From assembly GCA_031551405.1 (NCBI GenBank), contig JAVBNQ010000005.1, forward strand, positions 33,743 through 97,742: a stretch of 64,000 bases of DNA. The letters are read 5' to 3'. Positions 21,301 through 54,787 of the stretch are shown here, piece by piece; position 1 is the first letter of the stretch, and each line of letters opens with the position of its first letter. Under the pieces are notes generated by a model. The model worked only from the letters and a program-made list of their open reading frames with translations, made no database searches and was not told the origin of the DNA. Made by a program: the position numbers and the translations under genes. This DNA comes from a bacterium. Its GTDB lineage: Bacteria > RUG730.

Positions 21301-23874
21301 AACTGTTGACCCCGTCAAATACATTGCTCCACCGCTTGTTTGGGCTGAGTTATTTTCAAAACTAGCCTCAGCTTGAAAAGTTGCTGTAGAATTCAATAAA
21401 TATATTGCTCCGCCAGAAACTTTGGCTTCATTAGCTTCAAAGCTCGCATCTCCTCCAAACTCTAATTTTGCGCTTTCCAAAAACAACGCATCACCAGACG
21501 AAACTAATGACTTGTTATTTTTAAATTCTGCGCTAGTAAAACTCAAACTAGATCGATTTATCGGAGCCACATAAATAGCACCCCCTGAACTAGTACTTTT
21601 ATTGTTATCAAACAAAGCATGCCCTGTAAAAGAAATATTGGAAGCATTATATAAGTGAAATACGCCACCGGATTTATCTGTTTCATTATCTCTGAAAGTC
21701 GCGGTTGAAAAAACAATCTCAGAATTATCAAGATATCCAACTCCTCCTCCAAACGTTTGTAAACTGGTAGCTTTATTTCTTTCAAACAAAGCTTCGTCTA
21801 AAAATGTCAATTTTGAGTTTCCAATTATATAAATAACACCGCCAGGCGCTTTTGCGGCGTTATCAGCAAACAGAGCAGTTGAGTAAAATGTTACGCTAGA
21901 TTTGTCTAGATATAGAGCTCCTCCTCCAAACTTTGTACCAGGATTACTTTGACTCGTACTCTTATTGCCAATAAACTCAGCACCTCCTGTAAATGTAGCG
22001 GTAGATTGATTTAAATACATCGCTCCGCCCGATTGAGTTGTTTCGTTATTTTTAAAGGTCACAGTAGAAAAAGAAATATATGTTGAAGTACTGTATATGG
22101 CGCCACCGTTGCCTGTTCCAGTCACTTTATTCCCTTCAAACCAAGATTCTGAGGAAAATGTAGCGGTAGATTGAAGCAAATACATCGCTCCACCATTTAT
22201 CTTTGCTTCGTTATTTTTAAACGTCACCGCCTAAAAAGAAAGATACGATGAATTACCAGCATAAATTGCTCCACCACTTGACACTATGCCCGTACTTTTA
22301 TTCTCTTCAAACCAAACTTGTCCGGAAAATGTAGCGGTAGATTTGTCCATATAAATTACTCCGCCTGACTGATTAGATGAATTGTTGCTAAATGTTGCAG
22401 TTGAAAAAGAAAGGTATGACGAATTAGCTGCATATATTGCGCCGCCGTTCGAAGTTGCCGTATTGCTCGAAAAAAATACATTTTCTTTCAATATAGCCGT
22501 CGACTTATCTAAATATATCGCGCCGCCGTTTAGTTTAGATTCATTTTTTTAAAAAATACATCTACAAAAGAAAGATACGATGAATTTCCTGCGTATATCG
22601 CTCCTCCGCCCCCTACTGTAGCAAGAGACTTATTTCCTTCAAATAAAGAGTCTCCGGAAAATGTAGCGGTAGATTTGTCCATATAAATTGCTCCGCCACT
22701 TGTTTTAGATTCATTGTTTTTAAGAGAAACATCATCTAAAAAATAGAGTTTTGATTCAGTTTTTGCATTAATCGCTCCACCGGCCGAACCTGTACTTTTA
22801 TTCCCTTCAAATAAAACGTATCTATTGAATGTTGCAGTTGCATTAACGACAACTAGCGCTCCTCCGATCTGATAAGCTTCGTTATTTTTGAATGTTACAG
22901 TAGAAAAAGCAATCGTTCCATTTGCTAAATATACTGCGCCGCCGCCACCCATAATAGTTGTATTTGTACTTTATATTACCTTCGAATAGCGCTTCTCCTG
23001 TAATATTAGTGTTGGATCCAGATAAATACATTGCTCCACCAGTGTTAACTGATACATTATTTTTAAAAATCACATCTATAAAATCTACTTTTAGTCCACT
23101 GCCGGCATAAATCGCTCCGCCGCCGCTTGTTAAACTTTTATTCCCTTCAAATAAAGTAAAATCTGTAAAATTTAACGATGAGTTTGCAATTGAAATACTA
23201 ACAGCTCCTCCTGAGAGCAATGCGGAATTATTTCTAAATGTTACGCTTGAAAATAAAATACTCGATTTTTGAGTTGATGACGGGTTTGTGCCGCCTCCGG
23301 AATATATTGCTCCTCCATTTCCTCCGGATCCGGCTTTATTCCCTTCAAATAAACTTGCCCCTGAAAACGTAACGCTAGAACCCTCGATATAAAACACACC
23401 CCCATATCGCATACCGTTATTATATAAAAACTCCGAATTATTAAAATTGACACTGGACTGATTAATATAAAAAACCACTCCATCCGGATCATTACTGTCT
23501 ACGCTTGCCGAAGAAAAAATTATACTATCTATAGTGACTACGCTATTATTATTAACTTTAAAAATTCTTCCCTTCACTGTCGAGCTACTGACGGTCATCT
23601 TAGTAGTTGAGGATTTCAAAATAATGTCTTCAAGCCCAGAAATTGGAAAACCACCAGAAGCAATGATGCTTTTGTCATCTTGATACAAAATAACACTGTC
23701 TCCTGTCAATAACACACCCGCATTCAAGAATTCTTGCAAAGTGTCATAATAAATTCCACCTACCGGCTGTCCGCTTCCAATATGATACTCTGTTGCAAAA
23801 ACTTTCGCATTAAACGTAAAAAAGAAAAGCAAATTACAGAGAATTAGCGAAATACATTTTTTTAAATTTTTCAT
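18305..23874 (-). pseudogene. Pmp-repeat autotransporter paralog, disrupted by two homopolymer frameshifts, one other frameshift and one in-frame TAG
   Basis: ORF-track fragments 22882..23874 (with signal peptide), 22530..22952, 22231..22491, 19372..22227 and 18305..19393 form one colinear Pmp-like gene; the last fragment is a near-copy of the beta-barrel domain of 10819..17805. Confidence 0.7.
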
Positions 23875-25430: not shown

Positions 25431-25764
25431 AAAACTTCCTTTTTTTCGATTTTTTTTTTAAAATTATATGAAGAATTAATGTAGCAAAATATCCATCGAG
25501 AAGCAATAAAATATTTCAAATATATATATATATAAATTTTGTGAGGGTCAATTGATTTTTTCATGATACCAAATAATAAAACAAAAAAACGCCACTCAAA
25601 GATTCAATTTTAAAAAAAATATTAGAAAAAATCAGTTCATACACGAGGAGAAAAATTTGGCGTAACCGTAAAAGGAAAAAACAATCAAAAAAAATTTGAA
25701 ACTTTTTGCATAAAAAAGTCTCTAACTAGGCGAAAGAGCTCTCAAAAAGAGGGAGGATCCAAAA

Positions 25765-26517
25765 ATGAAAATTGTAAGCTTAAATCCTACAACAATGAAT
25801 CTAATAGTCGAATATATGAGCTTGCCCAACTCTGATGTTTATAAAAAAATTTTATTTGAAAAAATAAAAAATACTGAACTTGGCCTCGAAGCTCTAGAAA
25901 GTCAACAAAATGTTCTTCAAACTTTTAAGACTTTAAGCTCTCCTGAAATACCTAGTTCAGCTTCCATTACAATAACAGAAAAACTCCAAAAAATAAAAAG
26001 CAAGAAGCAAATTAGTTCTGCCAGTGATATTGCTTATAAATTTTTAGCTACACTGAAAACTGCTCTACAAATAAGTCTCGTAACAATTGGAGCGTTTTTG
26101 ATTGGAGTTGGAACAATCGCTTATTTTGTAAACCCTGAAAAAAACATTCAAAATAACAATATCTCATCACCTGCTTTTACTACTAACATTAATTCAACCT
26201 TATCAAAAACTTCTAACACATCTCTAAATTTTCAAGGGAACATCACTTTGGACTCAATCAAAAGTTTTGATTTGGAAAAAAATGAAAATCCACAAAATCT
26301 AAAAGAAAACTCTTTATATGCATTTCAAGGTGAATTAAAAAAATATAAAGCTATAACAAAAGATTCTGAATCTAAAGATGTTTTGGAAGTCTTGCAAAAC
26401 GCTGAGAAAGAGCTCGATAAAAGTTTCATAAATACAAATAAAATCGATAATTATATATATTACGCAGTCTTATCTCAACATGACGTAAAAATTTTATCTG
26501 ACGAAGAGTTAGACTGA
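25765..26517 (+). CDS. Hypothetical single-pass membrane protein (250 aa), first gene of the giant-ORF operon
   Basis: GGGAGG RBS upstream; one hydrophobic helix (LQISLVTIGAFLIGVGTIAYFV); stop lies 13 nt before the start of the 14.2-kb ORF. Confidence 0.55.
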   Translation: MKIVSLNPTTMNLIVEYMSLPNSDVYKKILFEKIKNTELGLEALESQQNVLQTFKTLSSPEIPSSASITITEKLQKIKSKKQISSASDIAYKFLATLKTALQISLVTIGAFLIGVGTIAYFVNPEKNIQNNNISSPAFTTNINSTLSKTSNTSLNFQGNITLDSIKSFDLEKNENPQNLKENSLYAFQGELKKYKAITKDSESKDVLEVLQNAEKELDKSFINTNKIDNYIYYAVLSQHDVKILSDEELD

Positions 26518-26530
26518 TAGAGGGGGAAAA

Positions 26531-29500
26531 ATGTTTATAAAAAATTTAAAAATTACAAAATGTTTGGCGTCATTCTTGGTTGTAACGACTTTTACATGTT
26601 TTATCTTGAATGACTACACCTATGCCCAAACTCCTGCAAAAATATTGCCTTCTATCAGCGAATTACGTAAAGCAAGGGGATATGACAAAACTTTTACAAA
26701 CATCGGTTTTAGAGAAGAAATTGCGATTAATCAAAGCGCTGATTTATACGCTAAAAAAATGAACACAAATTATGCTAATCAGCAAACAAAAATTGAAAAC
26801 AATTTAAAAGCAAAAAAAGAATCTGCTTGGGCAACTGCCGAGAAAAAAACAAATGAAATAAAACAAACTGCCACATTAAATAGAGAACAATTAAATGTAA
26901 ACTATGCAAAAAATCTTGCAGATTACAAATCAACATATTCTGTTCAAAAAGCTAAACTTGCAAGCGATTTTGACATAAAAGTTGCACAAGTAGACAAAAA
27001 TTTGGCGAGGCTTAGAGACGTATCCGCAATAGCTGCAAAAAAAATTGATACTCAGTCCGGTATTAACAAAATAGGCAGCGTAGTAGCCTCTGGTATTATG
27101 AAACCTGTACAAGGGATTATGAGCGGTCTTACATCTGTAGTCGGTTTCTTTTCAGGAAAAGATAATAACCCTCTTACAAAAATAAATGACAAAATACAAA
27201 ACATTGATAAAGATTTGGCTGATTTAAAAAATTCTAAAAACGACAATATGGCTTCTATTCAAAAAAATACTGCTGATCAAATAAAAAATTTAGAGAAAAA
27301 AAAGAAAGATCTGCTTGAAGCTAAAAGTGCATCACTTACAAATATGGACAAAAGAAATGACGAAACTTTGGCAAATATGGAGCTTTCATTCAAAAATGAA
27401 ATAGAAGCCGTAAATAATCGTGAAAATTCTTACATAGCGAGTTTGGTGAATAGTACAACTGATGAACTTGCAAAACTAGACGGTGAAATAAAATCCAGAC
27501 TTGAAGATTTGTACACACTTACAAACTCAGAGCTGGAAAATTATTTATTTGGAGACGATGGCTTATTTAAGAAAGCTTATGAATACGATGACAAAACAGC
27601 CTTACGAAATTTAAAGTCTGATCAAGATAATTCCAATCGTGAAATTCAAACTGACGAAAAAAGCGGTGGTTATATTGGAAATTTAGCTAACTATATGGGA
27701 GTGGAAGAGCAAAAAAGGGCATTTGCAAGTAATCAATACTTAGAAAAAGCAGAAAAACTGCTTTTGTCAGGAGCTAGTGATGGTACGAGAAGAGCCGGTG
27801 AATTTGCTGCAGCAGCCGGTGTAGTTAGCAAAGATGCCCAAGTTTTGATGCCACGCGATTTTTCTGATGCAAGTTTGGCTCGAAGCGGCGCTATAGAGCT
27901 TAATATGGATCAAGGCGAAGCCGCAGGCACCGTCCGAGATAACAAAGTAGCAAATATAGACGCATCATTCTTAAAATCCCAGCAAGAACTTGCCGACTAT
28001 TCTGACAGCATAGTCAAATATTCCGACGAAGTTACCGGTTTTCTAGAGGATACAATCAACAATTTTGCTGATAATTCGAAAAATGAGATGAATGATTTTA
28101 CCAACAAAACGGTCAAAAAGAATGATGAAATCAATCAAAAAGAAATACAAGCGCTTTTGGCATTTGTAAAAGAACTGCAACAATATATGGATATGGTCTG
28201 GCCGGAGTCACAATCTGCAGGCTATGAGCGAGCTACTGAAGCATTAAAAGAAGCCGCTGAATTATACTTGAACGCGTCAATTGATACCCTTGCTATTATA
28301 CTTGCTGTAGTCTTAGGAATTGTCGGTGGATTAGTTGCGACTATTATAGGTGCAATATTTCTTATAACTACAGGAATTCCTATGATATTTTCCGGTATTT
28401 TAACTCCCTGCGGAATTGTACAGGTAGTGGCCGCTGTAGCTAGCTTAATAATCGGTATTACCGGAGTAGCTCTTGGTATTTGGGGAATTATATCAGCCAT
28501 AAGTGAACGTGAACAATTAAAAACTGCGCTCGAAATAGCAAGTAATAATGTCAAGGTTTTAAACGATTTGTTGCCGGATCCATCAAAAAAAGACTGGCCT
28601 GAGAACACACCTAGTGAGTACAAAGTTTTCATGGATGCAGAAAAAAATTATAATTCAGCTATGGGCCAATTTAAAGTAATGTTTTTCAGACGTTTCGGCA
28701 TAGAAGGCCTAAAAAAAGTCAGAAACAAAATAAACCAAATAAACAGGTTATTAGGAAAAAAAGGCATCTCTGGACTGACTCATGACGAATTATTAAAATT
28801 ACAAGAACTACTCTTTTTCTTCAAACCTGCTTCTAACGATAAACTCCTAAAAAGATCGATGGAAGGACTGAAAAATACTTTTAAATCATATCAAGAGGCT
28901 TTAGAAAACTTCAAAAAATCCACAAAGACTGTAACATACACATTAAAAGAGCTCAAAGATGGAAGCATTGTAGAAACTACTTACACAAAAACTATTTGGG
29001 AGGCTTATCAAGACAAACAATTTTGGGGAGTTGTCGCCAGCGAATTAGATATGGCTCTAAACAATGCATACGTATTTGATATCGACGCAAATGGAAATGT
29101 AATAAAAGTAGATAGATCTGATGGATCAACTTACACTGAAGAATATAAGGATCCAGAAACCGGAGAATGGAAAACAGTTACTAAGAAGGGTTGGAGTGGC
29201 TTTGCAAATAAAGCATCTCAATCTGGAGATCGTTTTTTTTCTGCTATAAATAATGGCTTCACTAAGTTTATAGATGCAACAGATGCATTCTTCTCTGGAG
29301 TAATATCTGGTGTAATATACGGGGTTACTTTTGGTCACGTCAAGGTAGATAAATTTCCTACTTGGGTCAAGGGGATAACGACATTTATTCCAAATTTCTT
29401 CAAAGCTATAGTAGATATGACTTTTATGGGATATAACCTCACCTTGCATCTTGCAAAAGGGTTATCTCAGAATGGTGTTTTGAAAGGTTTACAAGATTTT

Positions 29501-32500
29501 GCTCTCGGAATGGCCTCTTTCCCTCTTGGCATTATTGAAAATGCGATTGGTATGAAACAGGGAACATTCTTAGATCTATTCAAAGGAAAAACTCACAGTG
29601 CAAAAGAAATTTGGGGCGAAGGAGAATACTGGAATCCCGGAGCAGCTGCAGGAACTTTAGGTTTCACTATTGTTATGATGATGGGGAGCCCTTCCGGAGC
29701 TTCTTCTATAAAAGCTTTTGTTAGTAATATTAAATCAGCACTTTCGTCAATATGGAACGCTATTAAGTATGTTGCAGTGAATGGAATATGGGCCGGATTA
29801 AAAGCTTCTTTCAAAGTTGTCGGATCTGCTCTAGGAAAAATAATAAATTGGACGAAATCCCAATTCAATTTCAAAACCGTACTAGGGAATGGTTTTAAAG
29901 CCGGAGTTAGTGCAGTTTTACATAACGTTTTATCAGGTGTTAAAATTGGATTAGGGGGTTTAGGAATCGCTGCTGTAGCTGTCTTAGGCGCAGCAGGGAG
30001 TATAGCAGGTAGCATAGTATTTGGCTTAGGAAAGAGTTTACTTACAGCGACTAAAGCTCTTGCCACTACTGCCTCTAAATATCTTAAAAAATTCTATAAA
30101 GAATCTTCTATAAAAAGTCTATTTAAATGGGCTTCTAAACAAGTTACTCCTAGAAAAAGTGCAGGAGCATTGCTTGCAGCCATATTATTAACCCCTGTTT
30201 TAATCGTATCTCACGTATTAGGTATTACACAAGCCATAAAACAGCTTCATACAGGTTTTGTAGGTTTAAGAAAAGAATATAAAGCAATGCAAAAGGTATA
30301 CAATTCTACCGGTTCTTATGTACAAACACGAAATGGAATGCCTGTAAACTTAAGGACTCAATTCATTCAAAATACTATCTCTTATGGACTGCAAGTTCCT
30401 CAAGTTTTAATTAACACTGTTATGTCTGTAGCGTTAGCTCCCCTTCTTATCACTAGCCCCCTTCTTTTTATAGGAGTTAAAATAGGTCACGTTTTCTGGT
30501 CGGAAGTTATCTTAGGGCAGAGAAAATTACGGGCGATGCAAAAAGAGCAGCAAAAAGAGCAATCTCGTGGAGCCATCAACTCTCAAAAAACCCAAATTGA
30601 ATCCGAAACCAATGCTCAAGCAGTGCAAGCTTCAGCAAGAAATCTTCGTGATCACGCGAAAGCTTTCGGTATAGAAGTTTTCGACAAAACAGGAAAAAGC
30701 TTAGGAGTAGTTAGCTATAAAGTCTTCATGGAAAAAATGATTAGTGGAGAGATATCCAGCTTTGCAGTAAATCAAGGAGGCTCTAAAAACGCAATATCGC
30801 TTGGTATCGGAGCACGCGAAGCCTTGACTAGAGATTATTTGGCATCACGAGATAATGCCAGTTTAACAAGACTACTTGCCCGTAATAACGGTAATAATAA
30901 ACTAGAGGCTTTGGTCGCGGCAGAGCGAGTTCAACGAAGCACCATAATCTTAAGAGAATATAACGCACAAAGACAAAAATTAACAGGTCAGTCAGCTATT
31001 AATTTTCTAGAACAAATGCTTAATCAAAATAAGTTACGAAGCAAGGTGGCCACTTCTGCACAAAAAGCCTTTTTAAAAATGCAAAATGCAGCTATAAAAA
31101 CAGAGCTCGCAAATCTACATGCTCAAGCACTTGCTGCAAGAATAGAATTCTTATTTAGTCAATCTAAGCTTGATCCTAAGATTGTTGAGCTACTTGATTC
31201 TAATTTAGGAATATTAGATTTCTCAAAAATAAAAGCCGGTGGTCTAACACGTAATGCTGCAGAAACACTTGTAAGACAAATGGGAGATATTTTGGGAGTA
31301 GTTTCAAAAAAATATCAAGAGAGCTGTTCAACAGGAAACAAACAAATCATAAAAGACTCAAGCTCTGTAGTCTCAGCAAGATTTAAAGAAATAGTAAACA
31401 GCGAAAAATTTCAAGAAATTTTAAAGATTGCAAGCCTAGCAGAGAGGCAACAAAAAATAATGGATTATATGAAAGAGTTGAAAGCAGTTGAAAGCGCTAC
31501 TCCTCCAACTGCTTTGGAAAGACTAGTAATTGATAGGATGACGCAAGTTCTTAGAGATAATCCTTCAATTACTCCTAAACAGCTAGCAAAAATGGAAGTC
31601 CAACTGCAAAAAGAAACTGTTTTAGCTCTAGAAACCGGAGCTCTTGTTTATAACGGGTTTACAAGTTATAACAACATTGCTGACGGTATAAAACAACTAG
31701 GCGTGCGACCTGATTTAGAATTAAATAACCAAAGAAAAGCAGTGAAAGCTACGACGGCATTAAATGAAATTGAAATTACAGCTCATCATCAGACTGTTGT
31801 TAGCCAACTTAACGAAATCATAGCAATGAAACCTGAACTCTTCAGCAAGAACCAAGGTCCCGCAGAAGGAAGAATTGAGGCACGAAGAAAGGCTAATTCA
31901 GATTTTATAGCTTCAGTACGCGAAAAATATAAAAATGACCCAATTGGCAAAATACTTGCAAAAAGACTTGAGTTTTTATTGGAAATCAACGTTTACAACA
32001 ACCAAGGAATTTCTGCAAAGGATATGAAGAATTTCACAAGTCTCCTCAAAGAAGAAGTTACTTTCGCCTTAAAATCCGGCGATATAGTTCCTGCTAATGG
32101 GCGTTTTATCTCGCAAACTCAAATGGAGGCATACCTAAAAACTTTTGCAAGCGAAGCCGAACTTATGCGGCATGCACAAGAAACCTTCAAAGTTCAAAAA
32201 CAAAAAGAGGCTTTAGATAAAAAATATGAGGGGAAACAGTTTGAAAAATATTCTAGAAGCAAAAGAAACGCAGCCCAAGATTTAGTCAAAGAATGTCTTG
32301 TTATAGGAAATATGGGAGAAAAAGAAAGACAAACTGCTATTGAAGCTCTTCAAAAACAAATATCTGATATAAAAATTGAAAGAGACACCGAAAGTCCAAG
32401 CATGAGAAAATTATTAAATCGACAAGTTGATGCATTAGAAATGTTGGTAAGCTCAATAAAAAACAACGATGTTGCGAGGATAAAAGAGGCTGTAACAGCT

Positions 32501-35500
32501 TATTTTTCAAAGGGAGGAGCGAGCAGTAGCGTGACAGCTGAAGCTTTCGTAGCAAGTATAAAATCTGTTATAACCGTTACAGAAGCATTTGCTGAGAGAG
32601 TAGATCAACTAAGTCGAATTTCGAAGGATCACGAAATTCATAAGGCTGATGGAAAATTAAGCATGCAAGACTTCCAAAAAAGAGAGGTCGGTGCAGAAAC
32701 CAAAGCAACATTAGTAATCTTAAAGGCTCAACTGGACGCATTAAAAGACACCTCAACAAGGCCAATTAGTTTAGAAACTTATAAAGAATATGCTGCTTTA
32801 AGAGAAAAAATTGAAAAAAGCGATGCTTACAAAAATGCAACCACTGAACAAAGAACAGCTGCGACCACTGCAACAACACCACATGAAATACTGGCGGCCG
32901 CACTCAATCCACTAGAGGCTGTGACATATAATAAACTTATGGAACAATTTAAAGGCTTAGACTTAAAAAGTGAGCAAAGCTTTAGGGACAGCTTTAACCA
33001 AGCTATACGAGAGAAAATTAATTTGTTTGTAGCGGAAGCTGGATCTTCGATGCCAGTCGCAACAATAGTAGATTACTTACGAGGTAATCGCTCTCGTATC
33101 CCAACAGATCTAATGGCTAGTTTAGAGCAACAAATTGTTAATAAACTTAAAGGACGCGAGGCAGTAACAGCTAACGATCTTACTAGAGATCAGGCTTTAC
33201 TTGGAACTCTGCCTCAGTCTTCAATTAGAGAAGTGTTAGCTGCTCGTCCTGACTTGCATAGGCTGATACTTCAAAAAGAAATATCTTATTTGCAAGCAAA
33301 AGAAACTGTTCCTGCTGCTGTCCAAGAAGCGAATAGGCAAGTAAACGAAACCCTAAGTCTTACTGATGCAGCTGCTCTTGTCAAACTAAAAGAAACAATC
33401 GCAACAATTAGCGATCCGACTTTAAAAAAACAAATAACCGCACTTATTAAAGGCAAAGAATTAGGAAAAATTACTTTTGCGAGATTGAGCGAGTTAATCG
33501 AACAAACAAAATCAAGTCCGGAAGCCACTCAAGCGTTAAACTTGATTGTTTCCAGACGAATGAATCAGCTACAAACGTATAAGAACGCAGCCGGAAGTGC
33601 CCAAAAATCTGCCTCTAATGCTCTTATTGCCGAATATAAAAAACTAGAAGACTACATTATGAAAGGTGTAGAAAAAGCATCCGCTGGATATTTGGAAATT
33701 TTAAATAGAGAGCATCTACCTCTAATGGAAAAAATGTATAAAATAATGGAAGCAGCCGGTATTCCAAAAGCAGAGATTTCTACTTTTGATCTATCAACTG
33801 GCAAAATAGGAGATAAAACTTTTTATCAAAAAGTCCAGGAACTTGCCAGTGCAAAAAAATTAACTTCAGCCGAATATATTCAAAGAGAATTATTCGGAGA
33901 AAACCATCAACTAACACATCTTCAAGCTGACGCACTCAGAGTCGTAGGGTTAAAACTGATAGAAGGACATAACAAAATAGGTGACGGAACCATAACAGCC
34001 AGGACAGCTGCACTCACTGACCCTAACTTCAATTTTACACAAAAACAAATCTTGATGATGGCAGCCAATGACCAAGGAATGATTGCTGCTCTTGGAATGG
34101 GAGGAGGAAAAACCAGAGTTTATCCTACTGTAATAGGCTCTATGATGCAAAAAGGAATAGGCGGAGGTATTGGTGAAATTCTGGTTTCTTCAAAACAAGA
34201 AATCGCTAATATGTTAGGCAATAAAGATTACATGGAAACCTTTTATGGTGTTAAAATGCTTGATGGAACCAAGTTGCATGCAGAAAATAAATTAGGAGAA
34301 ACACTCGCCAGCCACAAAAGAGACGGTATAAAAGTCATAGTTGTCTTTGACTTAGAGACAAGAGGACATTTGTCTCACGAGATCAGAACTAATAAAAGCC
34401 TGCAAATCCTAGACAAAATAGATATTTTGGCTATTGACGAAGCTGATGCCTTATCTCTAAAACAACAATCTTTTATTAATGCAGAAAGGCTGCCAGCAAC
34501 CGATCTGATTAAAAACCAAGTAGCGAAGATTCTAGAAACTTACGAAAAATTGAAAGGTGAAGGTGCAGAAAAATTTGATGCTAAAAAAGGCGGATTTGCT
34601 GACAAAACCTTTTTGGATGCAATGTTGGCCGAGCTAAAAACCAACGCTGAATTCCAAAAAGATCAAAGCTCTTACCTTAAAAAATCACTTTTTAGTTTAA
34701 GTGACAAAGAATGGACCGGACAAACCAGCGCAATGATAACCCAAGTTTTGAGAGGTCGTGCCGAGGTGCTTTCCGGGGAAACAAAAGGTGGATTCAAAGT
34801 AGACACTGTTGGTGGTATTCAAGTCGGAGTTCAAGATGGAAACAACTACAACTCAGTTGCCGTTCAAATTATAGATGCATTCCAAAAAAATGCACCACAA
34901 GGAGTTACTTTCTCAATCGAAAGATTTAAAACAACGACAGGAGCGAGTGTATCAGAATTTGCTGCTACGGTTTCAAAAACTACGGTTGAATCTGCCGCGC
35001 AAGAAATTCTTACCAGGGCACCCGGAGTTAGATTGCACGTTTTCGGAGGGTCAGGAACAACAGGCGGCGCTAAACGTATCAGCGAAGCTGTCACTGCTCC
35101 GGTAGCAGAAATCTCCGAAGCCTCTTTTGCTAACTATGCGTTCAATACGCAAGTACAAAAACCCGGACAGCGAACAACAGATGTGGTGGCTGCATTTGCC
35201 GGGAAAGCCTTGGAGGGTAAATGGGGACGACTTATCATTCAATCGCAAGAGAATTTAGCAGAAAACCTCTTGGCTACAATAGAAAAAGTAGCAGGCCCGG
35301 AAGCTGCAGCAGCATTTAAAAATGCGGCTAGCACTAGCGGCAAAGTTGAACGAATCTCAGATGTACAATTCGCGATAGAAAAATTAGACTCAGCCTTTGT
35401 CGATCCGGTTTTCATAAAAGGACAAGGAGGTGGATTCATAAGTCTCAACCAAGCTATTACAGACGGGTTAGTAAGATCTAATGGGAAAAAGTTTTTTGAA

Positions 35501-38500
35501 ACAGTGTCTGGCAGAGAAGTCAAAGTAAGTTTAGGTGATATTTTAGCGTCTCCAACAGCAATGAGAGAATTGAATATCCCAGAAAATCATAGAGCAACTT
35601 TACAAAAAATCATAGTAATAGATCATTACACTAATCCTGAAAGCGTGAGTGGTCTAGCAAAAAATACTTCAGCAAATGGCAATATTGTCTTTTCTACTGC
35701 AAAAGCAGGCAGAGGCATGGATTTTAGAGGAAAAATGCAATTACTAGTCACGGATGTTGATTCGCTTGCAAAAAATGATTTCCTACAAATATCCGGACGT
35801 GTTGGTCGCGGTGAGTCCAGAGATGTATTCCATAGAACAGTTCTAGTCAATCCTACTCAACTAAAATCTACTTTTACGGAACAAATTGAAATTTTGCAAC
35901 AAAAAAAAGAATTCATGCAAAGCAGTACTCTAGGGAAAGAATTTATCGAACAAGGAGGCGGCCTTAAAGCTCCTCCTGCAGATAGGCAAATTACTCAATC
36001 AGAACAAGCATTCAGGGCAGAGTGGACGGAATTACAAAGTAACTTAAAAAGTTTAAAAATATATGAGAAACAGCTTGATAAAGGATCATTTACGCAAGCG
36101 TCATCCGCAGAAATGATCCGAGCCAGCACAATAATACAAGGAGAATTTAAATCCAACGGAGCAGCTCTTTATCAAATAGGCGAAGGCGTCAGGTCAGCGA
36201 TCCTAAAAATTCCTCTTGAAAGGATGAAAGCCAAAGCTGAAGCTATGGGTAATACTCATGACGCAGCTTTGATCCAACGCATAATAGATGAAATGATCAG
36301 AACAAACAAAGGAGCTACGGCAGATGCTTTGATCTTGCAAGAGTCCGGATGGAAAAATCCAAAAGAAGTTTTTGAAAAAATGATGAAAGCAAATTACGAG
36401 GCTGCCATTCAAATTTATAAAATGTTAGATGCAGTAAGAATCACAGATCCAAAAAGCATGATGGAAAAAGTAGCTTCACCTATTACAAGAAAAGTAGCAA
36501 TAGGTGAATTCAATGTTGGGTTACAAGATCCAACATTATTAAGAGAAGTTAGAACTCGTGTTTTGGATTTAGAACAAGGGAAAATGGAAGTCCAAGCAAT
36601 AGGCAAAAGAGATTGGTATGAAACCAGAGCTAAAGCAACTGAAAAAGCTAAATCCGGACAACTGACTACTTTATCAGAAATTAATTCAATGGATAACCCT
36701 CAAATAAGTCGTCAAGTCTTGGAAACCGTAACTTATGTAGCGAAAGATTTGAATCCTCAACGGAAAACTACGGCATCAGACTCATACGCTCCAAAACAAA
36801 CCGTAAGAATAGCCAACCAGGCTCTTACCGGCGTAAAAGGGACAGAAGCCGTAAGGGTAAATACCAGTAATGCAGGACAGCTGGTATCGTCTTTGGAGCA
36901 TTACAAGACAAAAGGCGATAGAATAGGTGCCATTGTTTTGACTAATAGACAACTCATAGCATTACAGCAAGATCCGATTGCTTATAAAAGATTCCAAGCC
37001 GAAATTGTAGCTACTACAGATTGGAAACATGGAGTATTCGCAACAGGACAAGCTAAAATTTTAATAGCAGACAGTGATCAAGATATAACCAATGGAAGAG
37101 CCAAGACGCTAGAACAAGCACTTGGACAAGCACAAGCTCTTAAACCACCTATTGTAACAAATGCCACTCAAATAGTTCTAGGCAGCTCATCTCAAGATAA
37201 GAAAAAAGACAAAGATTTACAAAAACTTTTTGAAATTCAAACAAGAGATTTGCGAGCAGGTATTGACCCTAAGCTTTGGGATGATTTGGATACTAATCTA
37301 GAAATCGCTATTGATAAACAACGATTTGATGCAATGCCAGAAAAGGCGAGACAAGAATTTATAGCACAATTGGGACGAGAAGCGCAATTACGAAGTGAAC
37401 GCGCTAGGGACGCTGGTAAAGATACCGGTCAAGTAACCGCAGTTTTGAGAGAGGAGGTAGTGGATACGAGTCTTAAGGGAAATCAAATCGCAACTTCCGT
37501 GCTCAGTAAGCTCTCGACACAGCCTACTGTTAGATCCGAAGCTCTTGCGCTGTTAATAGAAGCTCAAGAATCAGAAATAGCCAGACTAGAAAAAGAAAAG
37601 GGAGCAGCATCAGACCTAGAAAGCTTAGGCCTTGAAGCTTTATTTAATGAAGAAGCGCTTGTTACTAAAAAAGATCTTGAAGCCAAAATACAAGACCTTA
37701 AAGTCGAAAGACAAAAACTACTTGCCCTAGAAACTGAGGTAAGAATATTCGAAACTATGGATAAAATAATAGACACAAAAACAAACAAACAAGAAGCTTT
37801 GGCTTTAACAAAAAAAGCTCAGACTTTACTTCCTCAATTGGCAGCACAAATGGATAGATTAAATGACGAAGCACAAGCTCTTCAGACGCAAGTTCAAGTT
37901 ATAGGCCAAGAACTTTTAGATCAAGGGAACTTGGCTGTTCTCGCTAATATTGTAAGAGGAGACCAAGCGCCTCAAATCATACAACAATATACAACCCTTA
38001 GAGACGATAAAAATGAAGCTTTAAAAGATAAATTGCTTGCAATCGCTAGAACTGCAGCCCCTACTGAACAATCTAAAGTTATGACGCATTCAACACTACT
38101 CATGACTACTGATGCTACTGTTAATGCCGGATATGCAAAAATAGAAGAACAATACAGAAAAGACGTATTCCCAGGCGTTTATCAGCCTACTGTAAATGCT
38201 GATGCTAATGCTACGACTTCACCTCAACAGCCCGTTGTAGTTCAAAATGCCAGATTAGACTTGGCTCAACCTGCGATACTCAAAGATGCAAAAGCAAAAC
38301 TTAAAAATGAAGCGGAAGGAAACAAATCTACCTCTAGCCAAGGACCATCAACTGCTGCTAAAACACAATACACTTCTCTCGTGACCATGGAAGTACGCGA
38401 CAAACTTTTAACAGAAACAGGAGTCAGTCAGCTAGAAATCGTTATAAGTACAGAAGTCCAAGACGCTGCTGAAAAAGCTCTAAGAGATGGCGTACAAAAA

Positions 38501-40768
38501 GCTAATGAAGAAACTCGACGCTATGTTACTTCATCTCCAAGACAAAGTTTACCAAAATCTCTGGTTGTAAAAAATTCTAAAGGAAAAATCGTAGATATTT
38601 ACGAATTAAGGAATGGTCAACTAGAAAGCAGAAACGCAGGAATCCAAAGTAGGCTTACTCGAGGCAAAGAAGACACTAGTGATCAAATGCAACAGCTGAT
38701 GGCTATGTTCGCGCAACAAGGTATGGCGCCTCCTGCTGGCTTGGGAGCTAACGGCGGAGTCGGTGAAATAAAAATTAAATCTTTTACATTTGGCAAAAAA
38801 TCCAAGCAACTAGAACAATTAATGAGTGAGCTCAGTAAACAGAAAAAAGATGGCTCAGTAACTATCGATTTAAGCGAAGTTGCTGACGAAAATGTAGAAG
38901 AATTCGTAAAAAGCGTTTATTCTGCGATATTCGAAGATCAAAACTTGCCAAGAAACGTTGTCTTCAAAAAAGGCAGTAAATATTTTGGAGCAACTGATGC
39001 TGATTTGAGAAATTACCTCGAAACCTGGAGTGGAGCTGAAAGAACTTTAGCTTTAGCGGACTCTGCATCATTATCATTTAGCAAGCAAAATCCGGACGTT
39101 CTTTTGCGAGAAGACACACTCAAGCCTAATTTAACTGATTCATATTTTGCAGAAAAACCTTTTAGACAAGAGGCTGATCAGGTCGCTCTTGCCAAAACAT
39201 ACGAAGGACGTGAATATTTCGACGGTAAAATAGAAATTGAAGGCGACAATGGTCCGACGACTAAAGCTTTATTCAAAAAAGACGTGACCGCAAACAAAGT
39301 TATAATAACTATTGATCCTGAAAACTTGAGATATTTTGGCGCTGAATATAATGCCCTCGAAAAATTCATAAAAGGTTTGCGGCAGATCGAGCTCGAATTC
39401 AAAGATTTAGGCAAAGATCTCGAGATAGTTATTCCAACGACAACTGACTCTTCTTTAACGGAAACTAGAGCAAATCTTGTAACAGCCTTAAAAACTTTTG
39501 TAGACGAATATAAAACTGATGCCAGAGAATTCAGGCTTCTAAATTCTGCAGGCAACTTACTTTTCACTAATAAGCCTGACAACTATGAAAAAACCACGTC
39601 TTTAAGCGTTGGTAAAAATGTTTTGGCTGTGCCGGAAACTGTTTTTTCTACTGACGCTGCTTTCAAAGCTTGGCTGCAAAACGCTCTCAAAACCGATGAA
39701 ATGAGAGCTCTCGACGAAAAAGGCGAAGGCGTAACTTTAGGCTTGGGCTCTGTTGAAAAGTTAACCGACGAAACTATACAAATGATTACAGAAGTTATTG
39801 CGAGGTCTTTCCCTGGAGAAAATGTAACTTTAGTCAATAAATTAGGGCAAGTAATAATTGACCCGGCTTCTCACCATGCCGTAACAAGTATTGCTGCACA
39901 ATCTTTAAGAATAACGAATGTACGATTGAATAAGCAAATTTTAAATATGCTCGACCAAAATAATATTGCTAATTTTACAAAAATCGAAATCTCTGAAGAA
40001 CTCGCAAATTCTCCTAGCGACATTTTACTTCTAACAAATTTTTTAACTCAAAAGGGTTTTAGCGGCGATGTAGTAGTAAAGACAAATTCCGGCGAAGTTA
40101 AAATTTGGAGAGAAGCATTGTTCGAAGCCGGCGCTATTGTAAAAGACGTAGGAAGCTTGGAAGACTTGAATAAGTTCCTCGCAACTTTGGACGAACAAGC
40201 TGCCAGCGTAGATTACACTAATTATTCTATAGTTTTGAATCTAAAATTCAGAGATAAATTTACTGACTGGAGCAAATTAAATGCTTTGATAAAAAGCGGC
40301 AAATTGAAAGATTTAACCATAACTCAACGTGGCCAAATCTTAGCGACTAATAACGCCAAAGTACAACAGTTCGTTAAACATTACGAAATCATCAGTCGTT
40401 CTCACGATATAAAACTAGAAACTTTGCGTAGCTACCAAGGCGAACTTCAACCTGTAAATGCTTCAGCTTTACAAAAAATTGATTTTGGAAAAATCGGTGG
40501 AGCAAGTACAACAGTTCAGCCAAACTTTAGTTTACCTGTTATCGCAGGAAGCGTTGTTGCTTCTTTCCAGGGAGCTGACGCATCTTTTGCTAAATATGTC
40601 ACTTACATGGGCAAATCTGACGTAACTCAAACTGCCAATTTTGCGGCGGAATTCAAAAAGAGTGTTCGCAGTTTGGGAGTTGAAGCCGGTCTAATCAGGC
40701 GAACTTCCGACGCTTTCCCTCGAACTACTGATACAGCGAACATGAGGCATTTGGATAGCGCTGCATAA
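26531..40768 (+). CDS. Giant protein (4,745 aa): signal peptide, coiled-coil region, hydrophobic/TM clusters, SF2 SecA/DEAD-like ATPase motifs, long C-terminal region
   Basis: Single uninterrupted ORF of 14,238 nt in an AT-rich genome; AGGGGG RBS; N-terminal hydrophobic signal-like segment; Walker A GMGGGKT (34094..34114), Walker B LAIDEAD (34427..34447), AGRGMD (35705..35722), QISGRVGRG (35786..35812); terminator hairpin downstream. Confidence 0.8.
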   Translation: MFIKNLKITKCLASFLVVTTFTCFILNDYTYAQTPAKILPSISELRKARGYDKTFTNIGFREEIAINQSADLYAKKMNTNYANQQTKIENNLKAKKESAWATAEKKTNEIKQTATLNREQLNVNYAKNLADYKSTYSVQKAKLASDFDIKVAQVDKNLARLRDVSAIAAKKIDTQSGINKIGSVVASGIMKPVQGIMSGLTSVVGFFSGKDNNPLTKINDKIQNIDKDLADLKNSKNDNMASIQKNTADQIKNLEKKKKDLLEAKSASLTNMDKRNDETLANMELSFKNEIEAVNNRENSYIASLVNSTTDELAKLDGEIKSRLEDLYTLTNSELENYLFGDDGLFKKAYEYDDKTALRNLKSDQDNSNREIQTDEKSGGYIGNLANYMGVEEQKRAFASNQYLEKAEKLLLSGASDGTRRAGEFAAAAGVVSKDAQVLMPRDFSDASLARSGAIELNMDQGEAAGTVRDNKVANIDASFLKSQQELADYSDSIVKYSDEVTGFLEDTINNFADNSKNEMNDFTNKTVKKNDEINQKEIQALLAFVKELQQYMDMVWPESQSAGYERATEALKEAAELYLNASIDTLAIILAVVLGIVGGLVATIIGAIFLITTGIPMIFSGILTPCGIVQVVAAVASLIIGITGVALGIWGIISAISEREQLKTALEIASNNVKVLNDLLPDPSKKDWPENTPSEYKVFMDAEKNYNSAMGQFKVMFFRRFGIEGLKKVRNKINQINRLLGKKGISGLTHDELLKLQELLFFFKPASNDKLLKRSMEGLKNTFKSYQEALENFKKSTKTVTYTLKELKDGSIVETTYTKTIWEAYQDKQFWGVVASELDMALNNAYVFDIDANGNVIKVDRSDGSTYTEEYKDPETGEWKTVTKKGWSGFANKASQSGDRFFSAINNGFTKFIDATDAFFSGVISGVIYGVTFGHVKVDKFPTWVKGITTFIPNFFKAIVDMTFMGYNLTLHLAKGLSQNGVLKGLQDFALGMASFPLGIIENAIGMKQGTFLDLFKGKTHSAKEIWGEGEYWNPGAAAGTLGFTIVMMMGSPSGASSIKAFVSNIKSALSSIWNAIKYVAVNGIWAGLKASFKVVGSALGKIINWTKSQFNFKTVLGNGFKAGVSAVLHNVLSGVKIGLGGLGIAAVAVLGAAGSIAGSIVFGLGKSLLTATKALATTASKYLKKFYKESSIKSLFKWASKQVTPRKSAGALLAAILLTPVLIVSHVLGITQAIKQLHTGFVGLRKEYKAMQKVYNSTGSYVQTRNGMPVNLRTQFIQNTISYGLQVPQVLINTVMSVALAPLLITSPLLFIGVKIGHVFWSEVILGQRKLRAMQKEQQKEQSRGAINSQKTQIESETNAQAVQASARNLRDHAKAFGIEVFDKTGKSLGVVSYKVFMEKMISGEISSFAVNQGGSKNAISLGIGAREALTRDYLASRDNASLTRLLARNNGNNKLEALVAAERVQRSTIILREYNAQRQKLTGQSAINFLEQMLNQNKLRSKVATSAQKAFLKMQNAAIKTELANLHAQALAARIEFLFSQSKLDPKIVELLDSNLGILDFSKIKAGGLTRNAAETLVRQMGDILGVVSKKYQESCSTGNKQIIKDSSSVVSARFKEIVNSEKFQEILKIASLAERQQKIMDYMKELKAVESATPPTALERLVIDRMTQVLRDNPSITPKQLAKMEVQLQKETVLALETGALVYNGFTSYNNIADGIKQLGVRPDLELNNQRKAVKATTALNEIEITAHHQTVVSQLNEIIAMKPELFSKNQGPAEGRIEARRKANSDFIASVREKYKNDPIGKILAKRLEFLLEINVYNNQGISAKDMKNFTSLLKEEVTFALKSGDIVPANGRFISQTQMEAYLKTFASEAELMRHAQETFKVQKQKEALDKKYEGKQFEKYSRSKRNAAQDLVKECLVIGNMGEKERQTAIEALQKQISDIKIERDTESPSMRKLLNRQVDALEMLVSSIKNNDVARIKEAVTAYFSKGGASSSVTAEAFVASIKSVITVTEAFAERVDQLSRISKDHEIHKADGKLSMQDFQKREVGAETKATLVILKAQLDALKDTSTRPISLETYKEYAALREKIEKSDAYKNATTEQRTAATTATTPHEILAAALNPLEAVTYNKLMEQFKGLDLKSEQSFRDSFNQAIREKINLFVAEAGSSMPVATIVDYLRGNRSRIPTDLMASLEQQIVNKLKGREAVTANDLTRDQALLGTLPQSSIREVLAARPDLHRLILQKEISYLQAKETVPAAVQEANRQVNETLSLTDAAALVKLKETIATISDPTLKKQITALIKGKELGKITFARLSELIEQTKSSPEATQALNLIVSRRMNQLQTYKNAAGSAQKSASNALIAEYKKLEDYIMKGVEKASAGYLEILNREHLPLMEKMYKIMEAAGIPKAEISTFDLSTGKIGDKTFYQKVQELASAKKLTSAEYIQRELFGENHQLTHLQADALRVVGLKLIEGHNKIGDGTITARTAALTDPNFNFTQKQILMMAANDQGMIAALGMGGGKTRVYPTVIGSMMQKGIGGGIGEILVSSKQEIANMLGNKDYMETFYGVKMLDGTKLHAENKLGETLASHKRDGIKVIVVFDLETRGHLSHEIRTNKSLQILDKIDILAIDEADALSLKQQSFINAERLPATDLIKNQVAKILETYEKLKGEGAEKFDAKKGGFADKTFLDAMLAELKTNAEFQKDQSSYLKKSLFSLSDKEWTGQTSAMITQVLRGRAEVLSGETKGGFKVDTVGGIQVGVQDGNNYNSVAVQIIDAFQKNAPQGVTFSIERFKTTTGASVSEFAATVSKTTVESAAQEILTRAPGVRLHVFGGSGTTGGAKRISEAVTAPVAEISEASFANYAFNTQVQKPGQRTTDVVAAFAGKALEGKWGRLIIQSQENLAENLLATIEKVAGPEAAAAFKNAASTSGKVERISDVQFAIEKLDSAFVDPVFIKGQGGGFISLNQAITDGLVRSNGKKFFETVSGREVKVSLGDILASPTAMRELNIPENHRATLQKIIVIDHYTNPESVSGLAKNTSANGNIVFSTAKAGRGMDFRGKMQLLVTDVDSLAKNDFLQISGRVGRGESRDVFHRTVLVNPTQLKSTFTEQIEILQQKKEFMQSSTLGKEFIEQGGGLKAPPADRQITQSEQAFRAEWTELQSNLKSLKIYEKQLDKGSFTQASSAEMIRASTIIQGEFKSNGAALYQIGEGVRSAILKIPLERMKAKAEAMGNTHDAALIQRIIDEMIRTNKGATADALILQESGWKNPKEVFEKMMKANYEAAIQIYKMLDAVRITDPKSMMEKVASPITRKVAIGEFNVGLQDPTLLREVRTRVLDLEQGKMEVQAIGKRDWYETRAKATEKAKSGQLTTLSEINSMDNPQISRQVLETVTYVAKDLNPQRKTTASDSYAPKQTVRIANQALTGVKGTEAVRVNTSNAGQLVSSLEHYKTKGDRIGAIVLTNRQLIALQQDPIAYKRFQAEIVATTDWKHGVFATGQAKILIADSDQDITNGRAKTLEQALGQAQALKPPIVTNATQIVLGSSSQDKKKDKDLQKLFEIQTRDLRAGIDPKLWDDLDTNLEIAIDKQRFDAMPEKARQEFIAQLGREAQLRSERARDAGKDTGQVTAVLREEVVDTSLKGNQIATSVLSKLSTQPTVRSEALALLIEAQESEIARLEKEKGAASDLESLGLEALFNEEALVTKKDLEAKIQDLKVERQKLLALETEVRIFETMDKIIDTKTNKQEALALTKKAQTLLPQLAAQMDRLNDEAQALQTQVQVIGQELLDQGNLAVLANIVRGDQAPQIIQQYTTLRDDKNEALKDKLLAIARTAAPTEQSKVMTHSTLLMTTDATVNAGYAKIEEQYRKDVFPGVYQPTVNADANATTSPQQPVVVQNARLDLAQPAILKDAKAKLKNEAEGNKSTSSQGPSTAAKTQYTSLVTMEVRDKLLTETGVSQLEIVISTEVQDAAEKALRDGVQKANEETRRYVTSSPRQSLPKSLVVKNSKGKIVDIYELRNGQLESRNAGIQSRLTRGKEDTSDQMQQLMAMFAQQGMAPPAGLGANGGVGEIKIKSFTFGKKSKQLEQLMSELSKQKKDGSVTIDLSEVADENVEEFVKSVYSAIFEDQNLPRNVVFKKGSKYFGATDADLRNYLETWSGAERTLALADSASLSFSKQNPDVLLREDTLKPNLTDSYFAEKPFRQEADQVALAKTYEGREYFDGKIEIEGDNGPTTKALFKKDVTANKVIITIDPENLRYFGAEYNALEKFIKGLRQIELEFKDLGKDLEIVIPTTTDSSLTETRANLVTALKTFVDEYKTDAREFRLLNSAGNLLFTNKPDNYEKTTSLSVGKNVLAVPETVFSTDAAFKAWLQNALKTDEMRALDEKGEGVTLGLGSVEKLTDETIQMITEVIARSFPGENVTLVNKLGQVIIDPASHHAVTSIAAQSLRITNVRLNKQILNMLDQNNIANFTKIEISEELANSPSDILLLTNFLTQKGFSGDVVVKTNSGEVKIWREALFEAGAIVKDVGSLEDLNKFLATLDEQAASVDYTNYSIVLNLKFRDKFTDWSKLNALIKSGKLKDLTITQRGQILATNNAKVQQFVKHYEIISRSHDIKLETLRSYQGELQPVNASALQKIDFGKIGGASTTVQPNFSLPVIAGSVVASFQGADASFAKYVTYMGKSDVTQTANFAAEFKKSVRSLGVEAGLIRRTSDAFPRTTDTANMRHLDSAA

Positions 40769-40800: not shown

Positions 40801-40841
40801 CGAGAGTTTAAAATTTTACTTTTAGACTCTCGTTTTTTTTT
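40801..40841 (+). terminator. Putative rho-independent terminator downstream of the giant ORF
   Basis: Inverted repeat CGAGAGT (40801..40807) / ACTCTCG (40826..40832) followed by T9 (40833..40841); the 18-nt loop is larger than ideal. Confidence 0.45.
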
Positions 40842-40926
40842 AGTCAAATTTTTTAGTCAAAACTTATGAGCTCAAACAAGCCAAACGAAAATATACATTT
40901 TTGTTTAACCGGTGGAAAAAATTTCG

Positions 40927-47252: not shown

Positions 47253-48032
47253 TTACTTAGAATTCAAAGTCATTTCTCGAATGATTAGGTCGGTAATGTC
47301 TGAGGCTTTGTCGGAATAAGCAAGATCGCTCTTGTCGAAAATAACGCTATATCCAAGCTTTTTTGCTATGAAATTTATGTTATCGTAAATTTTTCCCATC
47401 GTATTGTGCAAATATTTCTTCTCTAGCGTTTCTATTTCTTTCTCAACTTTTTTTTGATATTCGAGCAGTTCTTTTTTGCTTGTCTCGATTGATTTTTTCA
47501 AAACTTCCGGTTCAATTTTTTCAATTTCCGTACTTTTTTTAACGTCAAAACTATCGATACCTTGATTCAAAACTTCTTCTTTTTTTATTTCAGTTGAAAT
47601 TTTTACAGAATAATTTTCTGGCAAATCTTCAGTATTTTTTGTGCTTGTTGAGTCAGAAATTTCGAATGTTTCTTTTTTTGCGTCGGGAACTTCAGGTTTT
47701 TGAATTTCTACGTTTTTTGCCAAATTTTCAATTGTAGCAGTAGTCTTTTGCATTTCCTCTGAAACTTTTGTATTTTCCGTAGATTTTTCTACTTCAAAAA
47801 GTTTTGTATATTTTTTTTCCATTTCGTCTATTTGCGCTTGCTTAAATTCCAAACTTTTTCTGAGTTGAACTTTTTTTATCTCTAGATCTTTTTTTTGTTC
47901 TTTTGTTTTTGGGTACTCGTTAAAAATTTTTTTCATATCAACTACAGCAGTTTTTTCAGTATTTATCACTACAGCAAATAAAAAAGTATTACAAAAAAAC
48001 AAAAAAATTAACAAATTAATCCATTTTTTCAC
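47253..48032 (-). CDS. OmpH/Skp-like periplasmic chaperone (tentative)
   Basis: Signal peptide, long K/E-rich coiled-coil body, C-terminal ...GYSVIFDKSDLAYSDKASDITDLII resembling the OmpH family. Confidence 0.5.
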   Translation of the reverse strand: MKKWINLLIFLFFCNTFLFAVVINTEKTAVVDMKKIFNEYPKTKEQKKDLEIKKVQLRKSLEFKQAQIDEMEKKYTKLFEVEKSTENTKVSEEMQKTTATIENLAKNVEIQKPEVPDAKKETFEISDSTSTKNTEDLPENYSVKISTEIKKEEVLNQGIDSFDVKKSTEIEKIEPEVLKKSIETSKKELLEYQKKVEKEIETLEKKYLHNTMGKIYDNINFIAKKLGYSVIFDKSDLAYSDKASDITDLIIREMTLNSK

Positions 48033-48057
48033 AACAACAAATCCTTTGTTATAATTC

Positions 48058-49812: not shown

Positions 49813-49869
49813 GTAATTTAAGATTTAGAGTATTGACTTTCGATTCCGCTAAGTCGCTGAACAATATAT

Positions 49870-50505: not shown

Positions 50506-50512
50506 TTTTTAC

Positions 50513-51883: not shown

Positions 51884-51935
51884 TTTTGCCTCTCATCACA
51901 AAAAATTACAATTCTTAACTTCTAAATAAGTTCTC

Positions 51936-54784: not shown

Positions 54785-54787
54785 AAA

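Follow-up and report, generated by a model that had tools for sequence, protein, structure and literature searches.

The 64-kb window analyzed here (64,000 nucleotides of contig JAVBNQ010000005.1, assembly GCA_031551405.1) carries on its plus strand a giant gene for a protein of 4,745 aa, a small membrane-protein gene directly in front of it, and a promoter-like motif upstream of both. The giant open reading frame (ORF; 26531–40768, +) runs for 14.2 kb from an ATG start and is the longest of the window. Its ribosome-binding site, GAGGGGG, can be read directly from the sequence at 26520–26526 (+), and the best terminator-like site of the region, an intrinsic terminator with a 13-bp stem and T9, follows at 40801–40842 (+). 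An initial annotation of this DNA had already proposed both signals and had argued that an uninterrupted frame of 14.2 kb is not a product of chance; at a base composition of ~36% G+C, the probability of a stop-free run of 4,745 codons is indeed ~1e-149. It had also described the gene as the sole plus-strand block, a description that needs amending, as the giant gene is not alone: an ORF of 250 aa (25765–26517, +) precedes it and ends 13 nt upstream.

The identical 4,745-aa protein was called on a Logan assembly contig (run SRR23967709) and on the 164-kb NCBI contig. The presence of the same protein in a second, independent assembly argues against an assembler-specific chimera. The likelihood that the ORF is an artifact, a pseudogene, or a chance run is practically nil. 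Nothing was found in favor of such an explanation; the organism is known solely from metagenomic data. Against it stand the chance estimate and the second assembly, full-length collinear homologs in at least six other genomes, and a ribosome-binding site, candidate promoter, and terminator that are all intact. The giant gene is real, and an artifact is excluded.

When 1.84 billion cluster representatives were scanned exhaustively by HMMER with aa 2401–3200, the region around the ATPase motor described below, only 12 proteins matched at E ≤ 1e-3. Most of these are giants themselves (5,314, 4,785, 4,237, 6,141, 2,856, 5,363, and 3,724 aa), and every one is annotated "hypothetical protein"; two further relatives, of 6,236 and 5,503 aa, were recovered from genome contigs. 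Full-length relatives span 3,700–6,200 aa, and their hosts are Elusimicrobiota metagenome-assembled genomes (MAGs) from rumen and termite-gut-type samples together with unclassified "bacterium" MAGs. BLAST comparison with the relatives of 5,300–6,200 aa reveals three collinear blocks, aa 1–1480, 2240–3640, and 3860–4745, which are conserved at 23–40% identity and supports the earlier view that the gene is under selection. Two helical segments, variable and K/E-rich, lie between the blocks. Hydrophobic and transmembrane (TM) clusters also occupy equivalent positions among the relatives. Self-BLAST detected no internal sequence repeats, in agreement with the earlier impression of a nonrepetitive protein.

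The family was likewise rightly called unrecognized, as searches of Pfam, NCBIfam, PADLOC, PHROGs, and PDB sequences (phmmer) with the giant protein returned nothing above threshold. Two weak matches, to GarD (Inc; 14.2 bits, cut-off 100) and to DUF3857 (16.6 bits), were dismissed as noise. A word-indexed protein search with the motor region and the family profile retrieved only one 511-aa fragment, and scans of viral and metagenome contigs found no relatives. The family is rare, unannotated, and missed by profile libraries.

Near the middle of the giant protein lies an ATPase of superfamily 2 (SF2), assigned to aa 2440–3140 (33848–35950, +) and referred to here as the motor. Walker A reads GMGGGKT (aa 2522; 34094–34114, +) and is followed by DEAD at aa 2636 (34436–34447, +). 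An insertion of ~170 aa (34472–34990, +) lies between motifs II and III, the latter being GGSGT (aa 2839; 35045–35059, +), while motif V is AGRGMD (aa 3059; 35705–35722, +) and motif VI is QISGRVGRG (aa 3086; 35786–35812, +). Two RecA-like lobes with motifs I–VI are present, which places the motor in SF2; the motif set that had been read by eye in the initial annotation belongs to a genuine two-RecA SF2 ATPase.

The curated sequence profiles fail to recognize this domain. The Pfam models DEAD (18.6 bits, cut-off 26) and Helicase_C (15.5 bits, cut-off 23.5) match the motor below threshold, and the three SecA models, PF07517 SecA_DEAD, PF01043 SecA_PP_bind, and PF07516 SecA_SW, gave no match at E ≤ 1 with the whole protein and none at E ≤ 10 with nine family members. 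Against the PDB, the family profile matched only motifs V–VI of Mfd and RecG (E 0.004). An AlphaFold2 model of aa 2440–3140 was generated from the nine-sequence family alignment, with a mean predicted local distance difference test score (pLDDT) of 74.5. When this model was compared with the PDB by Foldseek, SecA and SecA2 made up the top six matches and 12 of the top 16, with a best E of 3.6e-8, and DinG came next; two fold searches on the model give differing rankings.

The motifs of the motor share their register with those of E. coli SecA. The stretch that starts at the conserved Gln and ends with Walker A follows the pattern Q-x10-G-x-I-A-x-[M/L]-x-x-G-x-GKT in both proteins, and in both the DExD motif is followed by a beta-strand (TPLIISG in the motor, QSFINAE in SecA), a pairing that is also made by hhalign. 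Motif V has the common form AGRG[T/M]D, and motif VI the common form Q-[L/I]-x-GR-x-GR-x-G, followed by SR-x-F. The distance between motifs II and III is 203 aa in the motor and 180 aa in SecA, and this gap is where SecA has its preprotein cross-linking domain. In the AlphaFold2 model, two long strands (aa 2648–2655 and 2813–2820) flank the insertion in the manner of the SecA stem. On the grounds of motif register, spacing, stem-like strands, and Foldseek matches, we call the motor SecA-like. It shares with SecA and SecA2 a two-RecA DEAD motor, the Walker A register, and, between motifs II and III, an insertion of large size, but the helical scaffold, the wing, and the two-helix finger are not detectable by sequence in the giant protein; a profile of aa 3100–3660 aligned with SecA over motif VI only, with an insignificant hhalign score, and revealed no scaffold or wing similarity. 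The stretch from motif III to motif V is also longer (220 aa against 118 aa in SecA), and whereas SecA and SecA2 are soluble proteins of 800–900 aa, the motor is embedded at aa 2440–3140 of a membrane protein. Overall, the motor is likely SecA-like, yet it does not belong to the curated SecA family.

Alignment of the motor profile with E. coli SecA by hhalign paired the correct motifs but returned an insignificant probability of ~1%. XPD/DinG-type helicases have insertions in lobe 1 too; the SecA assignment is thus likely rather than proven. The corresponding alternative is that the giant protein is a membrane-anchored translocase or helicase for nucleic acids, of the Snf2, DinG, or DEAD-box type, which would act in DNA or RNA uptake, export, defense, or conflict. 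We consider this unlikely. SecA is a better fit than Snf2 for the Walker A register, the AGRGxD form of motif V, the Q-x-x-GRxGRxG form of motif VI, and the size of the insertion that separates motifs II and III; the Snf2 motif forms are LSTRAGGLGINL and DRAHRIGQ and differ from motifs V and VI of the motor. Unlike the insertion of XPD/DinG proteins, that of the giant protein contains no Fe–S cysteine cluster. Moreover, the giant protein is membrane anchored, and no nucleic acid–binding accessory domain was detected in it. The genomic setting points the same way: the gene has no PADLOC or PHROG matches, no relatives were found among viral contigs, it stands in a housekeeping context, and nothing in the window points to a phage, a plasmid, a defense island, or another mobile element.

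The ATPase domain may also occur apart from large membrane proteins. The proteins P0010, P0011, and P0012 have only 507–1,220 aa and no TM segments, and a weak relative of the first lobe of the motor (28% identity over 174 aa) is encoded at 6995–7558 of locus L005, where a contig of a Lachnospiraceae MAG ends. This suggests that the domain exists outside the giant architecture as well.

The region in front of the motor appears to anchor the protein in the membrane. Residues 1–32 (26531–26626, +) have the features of a Sec-type signal peptide: a K-rich n-region, a hydrophobic core at aa 11–26 within a hydrophobic segment that hydropathy places at aa 8–26, and a cleavage-like site, T-Y-A|Q, that was judged by eye. 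The N terminus is conserved among the relatives up to and including an x-Y-x-x-A cleavage-like site, which fits a Sec signal peptide. The following domain (aa 33–585; 26627–28285, +), which would be exported, is K/N/E-rich and helical or amphipathic in character; it is conserved in the relatives P0003, P0004, P0006, and P0008 and in the giant protein of locus L004, and a profile search of the N-terminal block against the PDB gave only weak apolipoprotein-like matches. A polytopic membrane region is predicted at aa 586–1323 (28286–30499, +). Hydropathy defines TM clusters at aa 576–658, 1133–1167, 1208–1236, and 1289–1323, with Gly-rich amphipathic segments between them, and the segments themselves were delimited as a cluster at 586–652 and TMs at ~1139–1166, 1212–1234, and 1290–1322. 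The N-terminal hydrophobic segment, the TM clusters, and the SF2 motifs of the initial annotation could therefore all be located. Between the membrane region and the motor, a helical linker (aa ~1480–2240; 30968–33250, +) cannot be aligned with the relatives, in which the equivalent segments differ in length and are K/E-rich.

Behind the motor, the last ~1,600 aa had been described as lacking any recognized motif. They are not without features, as they contain a conserved block, a set of alpha/beta modules, and a conserved C terminus. The post-motor block of 500 aa (aa 3141–3640; 35951–37450, +) is conserved among the relatives and has no profile match in the PDB. It is followed by a second variable, coil-like segment (aa 3641–3959; 37451–38407, +) that is poorly conserved and that is longer and strongly K/E-rich in the relatives. 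The C-terminal array (aa 3960–4665; 38408–40525, +) comprises five or six small beta-alpha-beta-beta(-alpha) modules, whose profiles compare weakly with one another (E ~1e-3). The modules have weak fold matches to STAS domains; folds of the D-Tyr-tRNA-deacylase type score similarly, and the C-terminal block has no credible profile match in the PDB. We tentatively describe the array as tandem STAS-like interaction modules, a description at the level of the fold. In four relatives, an additional hydrophobic TM hairpin lies between the post-motor part and the module array (aa 4440–4478 of P0003, aa 3409–3465 of P0005, aa 4477–4610 of the L004 giant, and aa 5277–5357 of the L002 giant); the window protein has a short Gly/Ala-rich stretch at this position (aa ~4050–4075).

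The protein ends with the motif L-D-S-A-A-COOH (40751–40765, +). Alignment of the relatives shows the form L-[DE]-x-A-A at the terminus of six of eight, the exceptions being P0007 (LSVAA) and P0008 (LQNAK); P0009 ends with LLFAA. Such a terminus, acidic and then small and apolar, bears a superficial likeness to that of type I secretion system (T1SS) substrates, and the T1SS signals of proteases and HasA-type proteins reportedly have a similar terminal motif. Together with the very large size and the N-terminal signal peptide, this raises the question of whether the giant protein is secreted or displayed at the surface, as a T1SS-style substrate or as a contact-dependent effector acting on or in another cell. 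The hosts of the relatives, gut-associated Elusimicrobiota, would suit such a role, and distant relatives are preceded by TadE/Tad or secretin/RcpC genes (P0008 and P0009) and accompanied by further giant genes. Nevertheless, we regard secretion as distinctly unlikely. The window and the loci L004, L007, and L009 contain no ABC/membrane fusion protein/TolC, type II secretion system (T2SS), Tad, or other secretion genes, and several TM segments would block threading through a T1SS. The giant protein has no RTX, Ig-like, or adhesin repeats or Pfam matches, in line with the earlier remark that RTX repeats are missing, and the window has no T1SS genes. In addition, an ATPase would be useless outside the cytoplasm unless it were injected. 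The initial annotation had suggested a giant secreted or membrane-embedded ATP-driven effector or surface machine; because of the lack of nearby secretion genes, the several TM segments, and the need of the ATPase for the cytoplasm, the secreted effector is unsupported, while a membrane-embedded, ATP-driven machine is still the best reading.

The giant gene is accompanied by a partner. The 250-aa protein has a layout of ~95 N-terminal residues, one TM segment at about aa 98–121, and ~130 C-terminal residues, making it a predicted single-pass membrane protein. The giant gene is immediately preceded by a homolog of its gene in L004 (E 2e-14), L007 (E 2e-10), and L009 (hhalign probability 99.4%), and the P0008 locus has at this position an ORF of 243 aa without a Pfam match. 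By gene order and homology, the two genes form a conserved two-gene operon. The best Pfam match of the small protein is Sigma_reg_N, below threshold (E 0.022; 15.5 bits, cut-off 26.3). It has no profile match in the PDB, and a word-indexed protein search with its profile found nothing besides the protein itself and its copy in L007.

Upstream of the small ORF, by 40 nt, lies the promoter-like motif TGAAACTTTTT-N10-GTCTCTAA (GAAACTT-N16-TCTAA; 25697–25725, +). It is the sole match in the window, where 0.02 would be expected, and each of the four loci whose upstream DNA can be read (the window, L004, L007, and L009) has it. The shared form is TG[A/G]AACTTTTT-N10-G[T/A]CTCTAA, that is, G[A/G]AACTT-N16-TCTAA. 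The other copies, at 1079–1106 of L004, 7124–7151 of L007, and 6794–6821 and 6855–6882 of L009, likewise stand upstream of the small gene, at distances of 34–135 nt. In L009, the locus of P0004, the motif is thus doubled in tandem, with a spacing of 61 nt. No sigma-70-like site was found on the plus strand of the intergenic region upstream of the small ORF. The consensus of promoters for sigmaE and other extracytoplasmic function (ECF) sigma factors is reportedly GGAACTT-N16-TCTGA/TCAAA, and the window motif closely resembles it. The intergenic stretch in front of the motif (25431–25696) is AT-rich, with long A/T homopolymers and a (TA)7–8 run at ~25520–25535, and may serve as an UP-element or a DNA-curvature element.

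Two relatives, L007 and the P0008 locus, have just before the small gene a gene for an ECF sigma factor, recognized by its domains Sigma70_r2 and r4_2. The motif and these neighbors suggest that a dedicated ECF sigma factor drives the operon. The arrangement is similar to RpoE–RseA and SigW–RsiW in its promoter, in a first operon gene that encodes a single-pass membrane protein with ~95 residues predicted to be cytoplasmic, and in the ECF sigma gene that stands alongside in two relatives. However, no ECF sigma gene adjacent to the operon was found in the window, the small protein has no above-threshold match to an anti-sigma Pfam family, and the cargo of the operon is a 4,745-aa protein. The small protein has a layout that fits an anti-sigma factor; it is probably a membrane regulator of the ECF sigma factor, with a putative anti-sigma role, or else a partner dedicated to the giant protein. 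These features could also be read as the main purpose of the locus: the giant protein would then be a regulatory or sensing scaffold, a sensor in the membrane whose STAS-like array, together with the small partner, controls the ECF sigma factor by partner switching, and whose ATPase is a conformational switch and not a translocase. We find this reading very unlikely.

Taken together, our analysis favors an ECF-regulated operon that encodes a membrane-anchored, ATP-driven machine of the SecA type that grips or moves polypeptide, a reading to which we assign a probability of roughly 45%. The two genes would be transcribed from the ECF/sigmaE-type promoter, with the small protein probably acting as the sigma-factor regulator or the dedicated partner. 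The giant protein would be anchored in the inner membrane, its N-terminal ~550 aa exported by way of the Sec signal peptide and aa 586–1323 residing in the membrane. The motor and everything downstream of it are placed in the cytoplasm because the motor needs ATP, and the C-terminal part can stay there because the extra TM element of the relatives looks like a hairpin, which entails no change of side; in the simplest view, the remaining ~3,400 aa would therefore be cytoplasmic. This part would comprise the divergent SecA-type DEAD motor with an insertion at the position of the preprotein-binding domain, followed by the conserved helical block, and the STAS-like modules would dock protein partners. 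Tethered in this way, the predicted ATPase could grip and move polypeptide, rather than nucleic acid, at the membrane, be it parts of the protein itself or client proteins. Since the domain that would be exported lies at the N terminus and is equipped with a signal peptide of its own, the protein is unlikely to export itself in cis and more plausibly acts in trans or on clients.

A bolder version of this model would make the protein a self-contained translocation or membrane-remodeling machine in a single polypeptide, distinct from the numbered secretion systems and comparable with the giant proteins of Omnitrophota in miniature. A SecA-derived motor would be tethered to its own membrane domain and to a STAS-like docking array, the whole would be switched on through the ECF sigma/anti-sigma pair by an envelope or cell-contact signal, and the LDxAA tail would mark the protein for recognition by a protease, by a PDZ partner, or by an exporter. 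We offer it as speculation that is improbable in this full form.

The initial annotation had suggested that the protein may be novel. However, giant bacterial proteins with many TM helices and a divergent SecA DEAD motor, lacking scaffold and wing, have already been described computationally (bioRxiv 10.1101/2023.11.21.568195; 10.64898/2026.06.07.730766), so that the present protein is known in kind; it resembles these giants rather than any known adhesin or toxin. Such giants occur in Omnitrophota and in some Actinobacteria (West-Roberts et al. 2023, bioRxiv 10.1101/2023.11.21.568195), and an architecture cluster with PF07517 has been described (10.64898/2026.06.07.730766). For the Omnitrophota proteins, self-export or accessory export has been proposed, and secretion loci resembling T2SS and type IV pili as well as further giant genes are reported to lie adjacent. 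The present family shares with them a very large single ORF, many TM helices, an N-terminal signal-like region without recognizable domains, and a fast-evolving SecA-type DEAD motor that has an insertion at the preprotein-binding position and lacks scaffold and wing. Both are found in small-genome, host- or partner-associated bacteria, and the secretin/RcpC/Tad genes and giant genes near distant relatives of the present family recall the Omnitrophota secretion loci. In the P0008 locus (JGI 3300075153), the distant relative is followed by giant genes without Pfam domains, and the same is seen at 19214–27175 of L008; these trailing genes encode 7,875 aa in one case and 1,251 aa plus >4,408 aa in the other.

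There are also differences. The Omnitrophota proteins exceed 30,000 aa, whereas the protein described here has 4,745 aa and is 6–18 times smaller. Its motor escapes the Pfam models SecA_DEAD and SecA_PP_bind, no glycosyl hydrolase, peptidase, dockerin, or C39 domain was found in it by Pfam, and its 64-kb window holds no secretion locus. The novel features of the present family are its compact size, a motor placed centrally in the protein, the conserved partner gene, the promoter of ECF type, the array of STAS-like modules, and the LDxAA terminus; the last four have not been described for the Omnitrophota giants. By comparison with the published descriptions, the present family would represent a smaller, separate lineage of Omnitrophota-type giant SecA DEAD proteins.

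The size matters in practice. Giant proteins that combine TM helices with a SecA-like motor have so far been purely computational, and at >30,000 aa in uncultured Omnitrophota, experiments on them are almost impossible. The present family of 4.7-k-aa proteins has clear domain boundaries, a two-gene operon, and an identifiable candidate promoter with a probable sigma factor, and its motor domain of ~700 aa folds in silico with reasonable confidence. Its compact size and clear domains make the working and the substrate of a tethered SecA-derived motor testable with ordinary constructs. Moreover, the family shows that motors of this type can go unnoticed by every current profile library, and similar systems may be under-counted in gut Elusimicrobiota and in other little-studied phyla.

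The operon is surrounded by housekeeping genes. The window contains purH, ahcY, hrcA-grpE-dnaK-dnaJ, an rsmE-like methyltransferase gene, ilvD, obg, thiE, comEC, and hisB. Subunits B and D of a V/A-type ATPase (49870–51883, −) adjoin ilvD, and lpxA, lpxI, and skp/ompH lie within 47253–55600; the ATPase subunits and the genes lpxA, lpxI, and skp imply that the host is a diderm with a V-type ATPase. Among the housekeeping proteins, DnaK, PurH, GrpE, and V-ATPase B are singletons, with no named relative at 90% identity. An ORF of 780 aa at 384–2726 (−) matches no Pfam family at E ≤ 0.001.

Several genes for Pmp-repeat autotransporters lie upstream of the giant gene. An ORF of 2,328 aa (10819–17805, −) is packed with Chlam_PMP repeats (E 2e-50), and a further Pmp-repeat ORF of 330 aa is found at 22882–23874 (−). 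A chlamydial origin, suggested by these neighbors, was rejected on account of the hosts of the giant gene's relatives, which are Elusimicrobiota and unclassified MAGs; the genome is unlikely to be chlamydial, and it appears to be an Elusimicrobiota-like genome with a Pmp-like autotransporter cluster. The giant protein itself is not a chlamydial Inc or Pmp protein, as its GarD match stays far below the cut-off and Chlam_PMP matches the neighbors and not the giant protein. Between these ORFs, a Pmp-repeat passenger ORF of 951 aa (19372–22227, −) is followed by an autotransporter beta-domain ORF of 362 aa (18305–19393, −). Their frames differ, and their 22-nt overlap falls exactly on an A8 homopolymer (AAAGAAAAAAAATG; junction 19372–19400). 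A slip of one base would fuse passenger and beta-domain, so that the autotransporter may be phase variable or frameshifted, or the sequence may contain an error.

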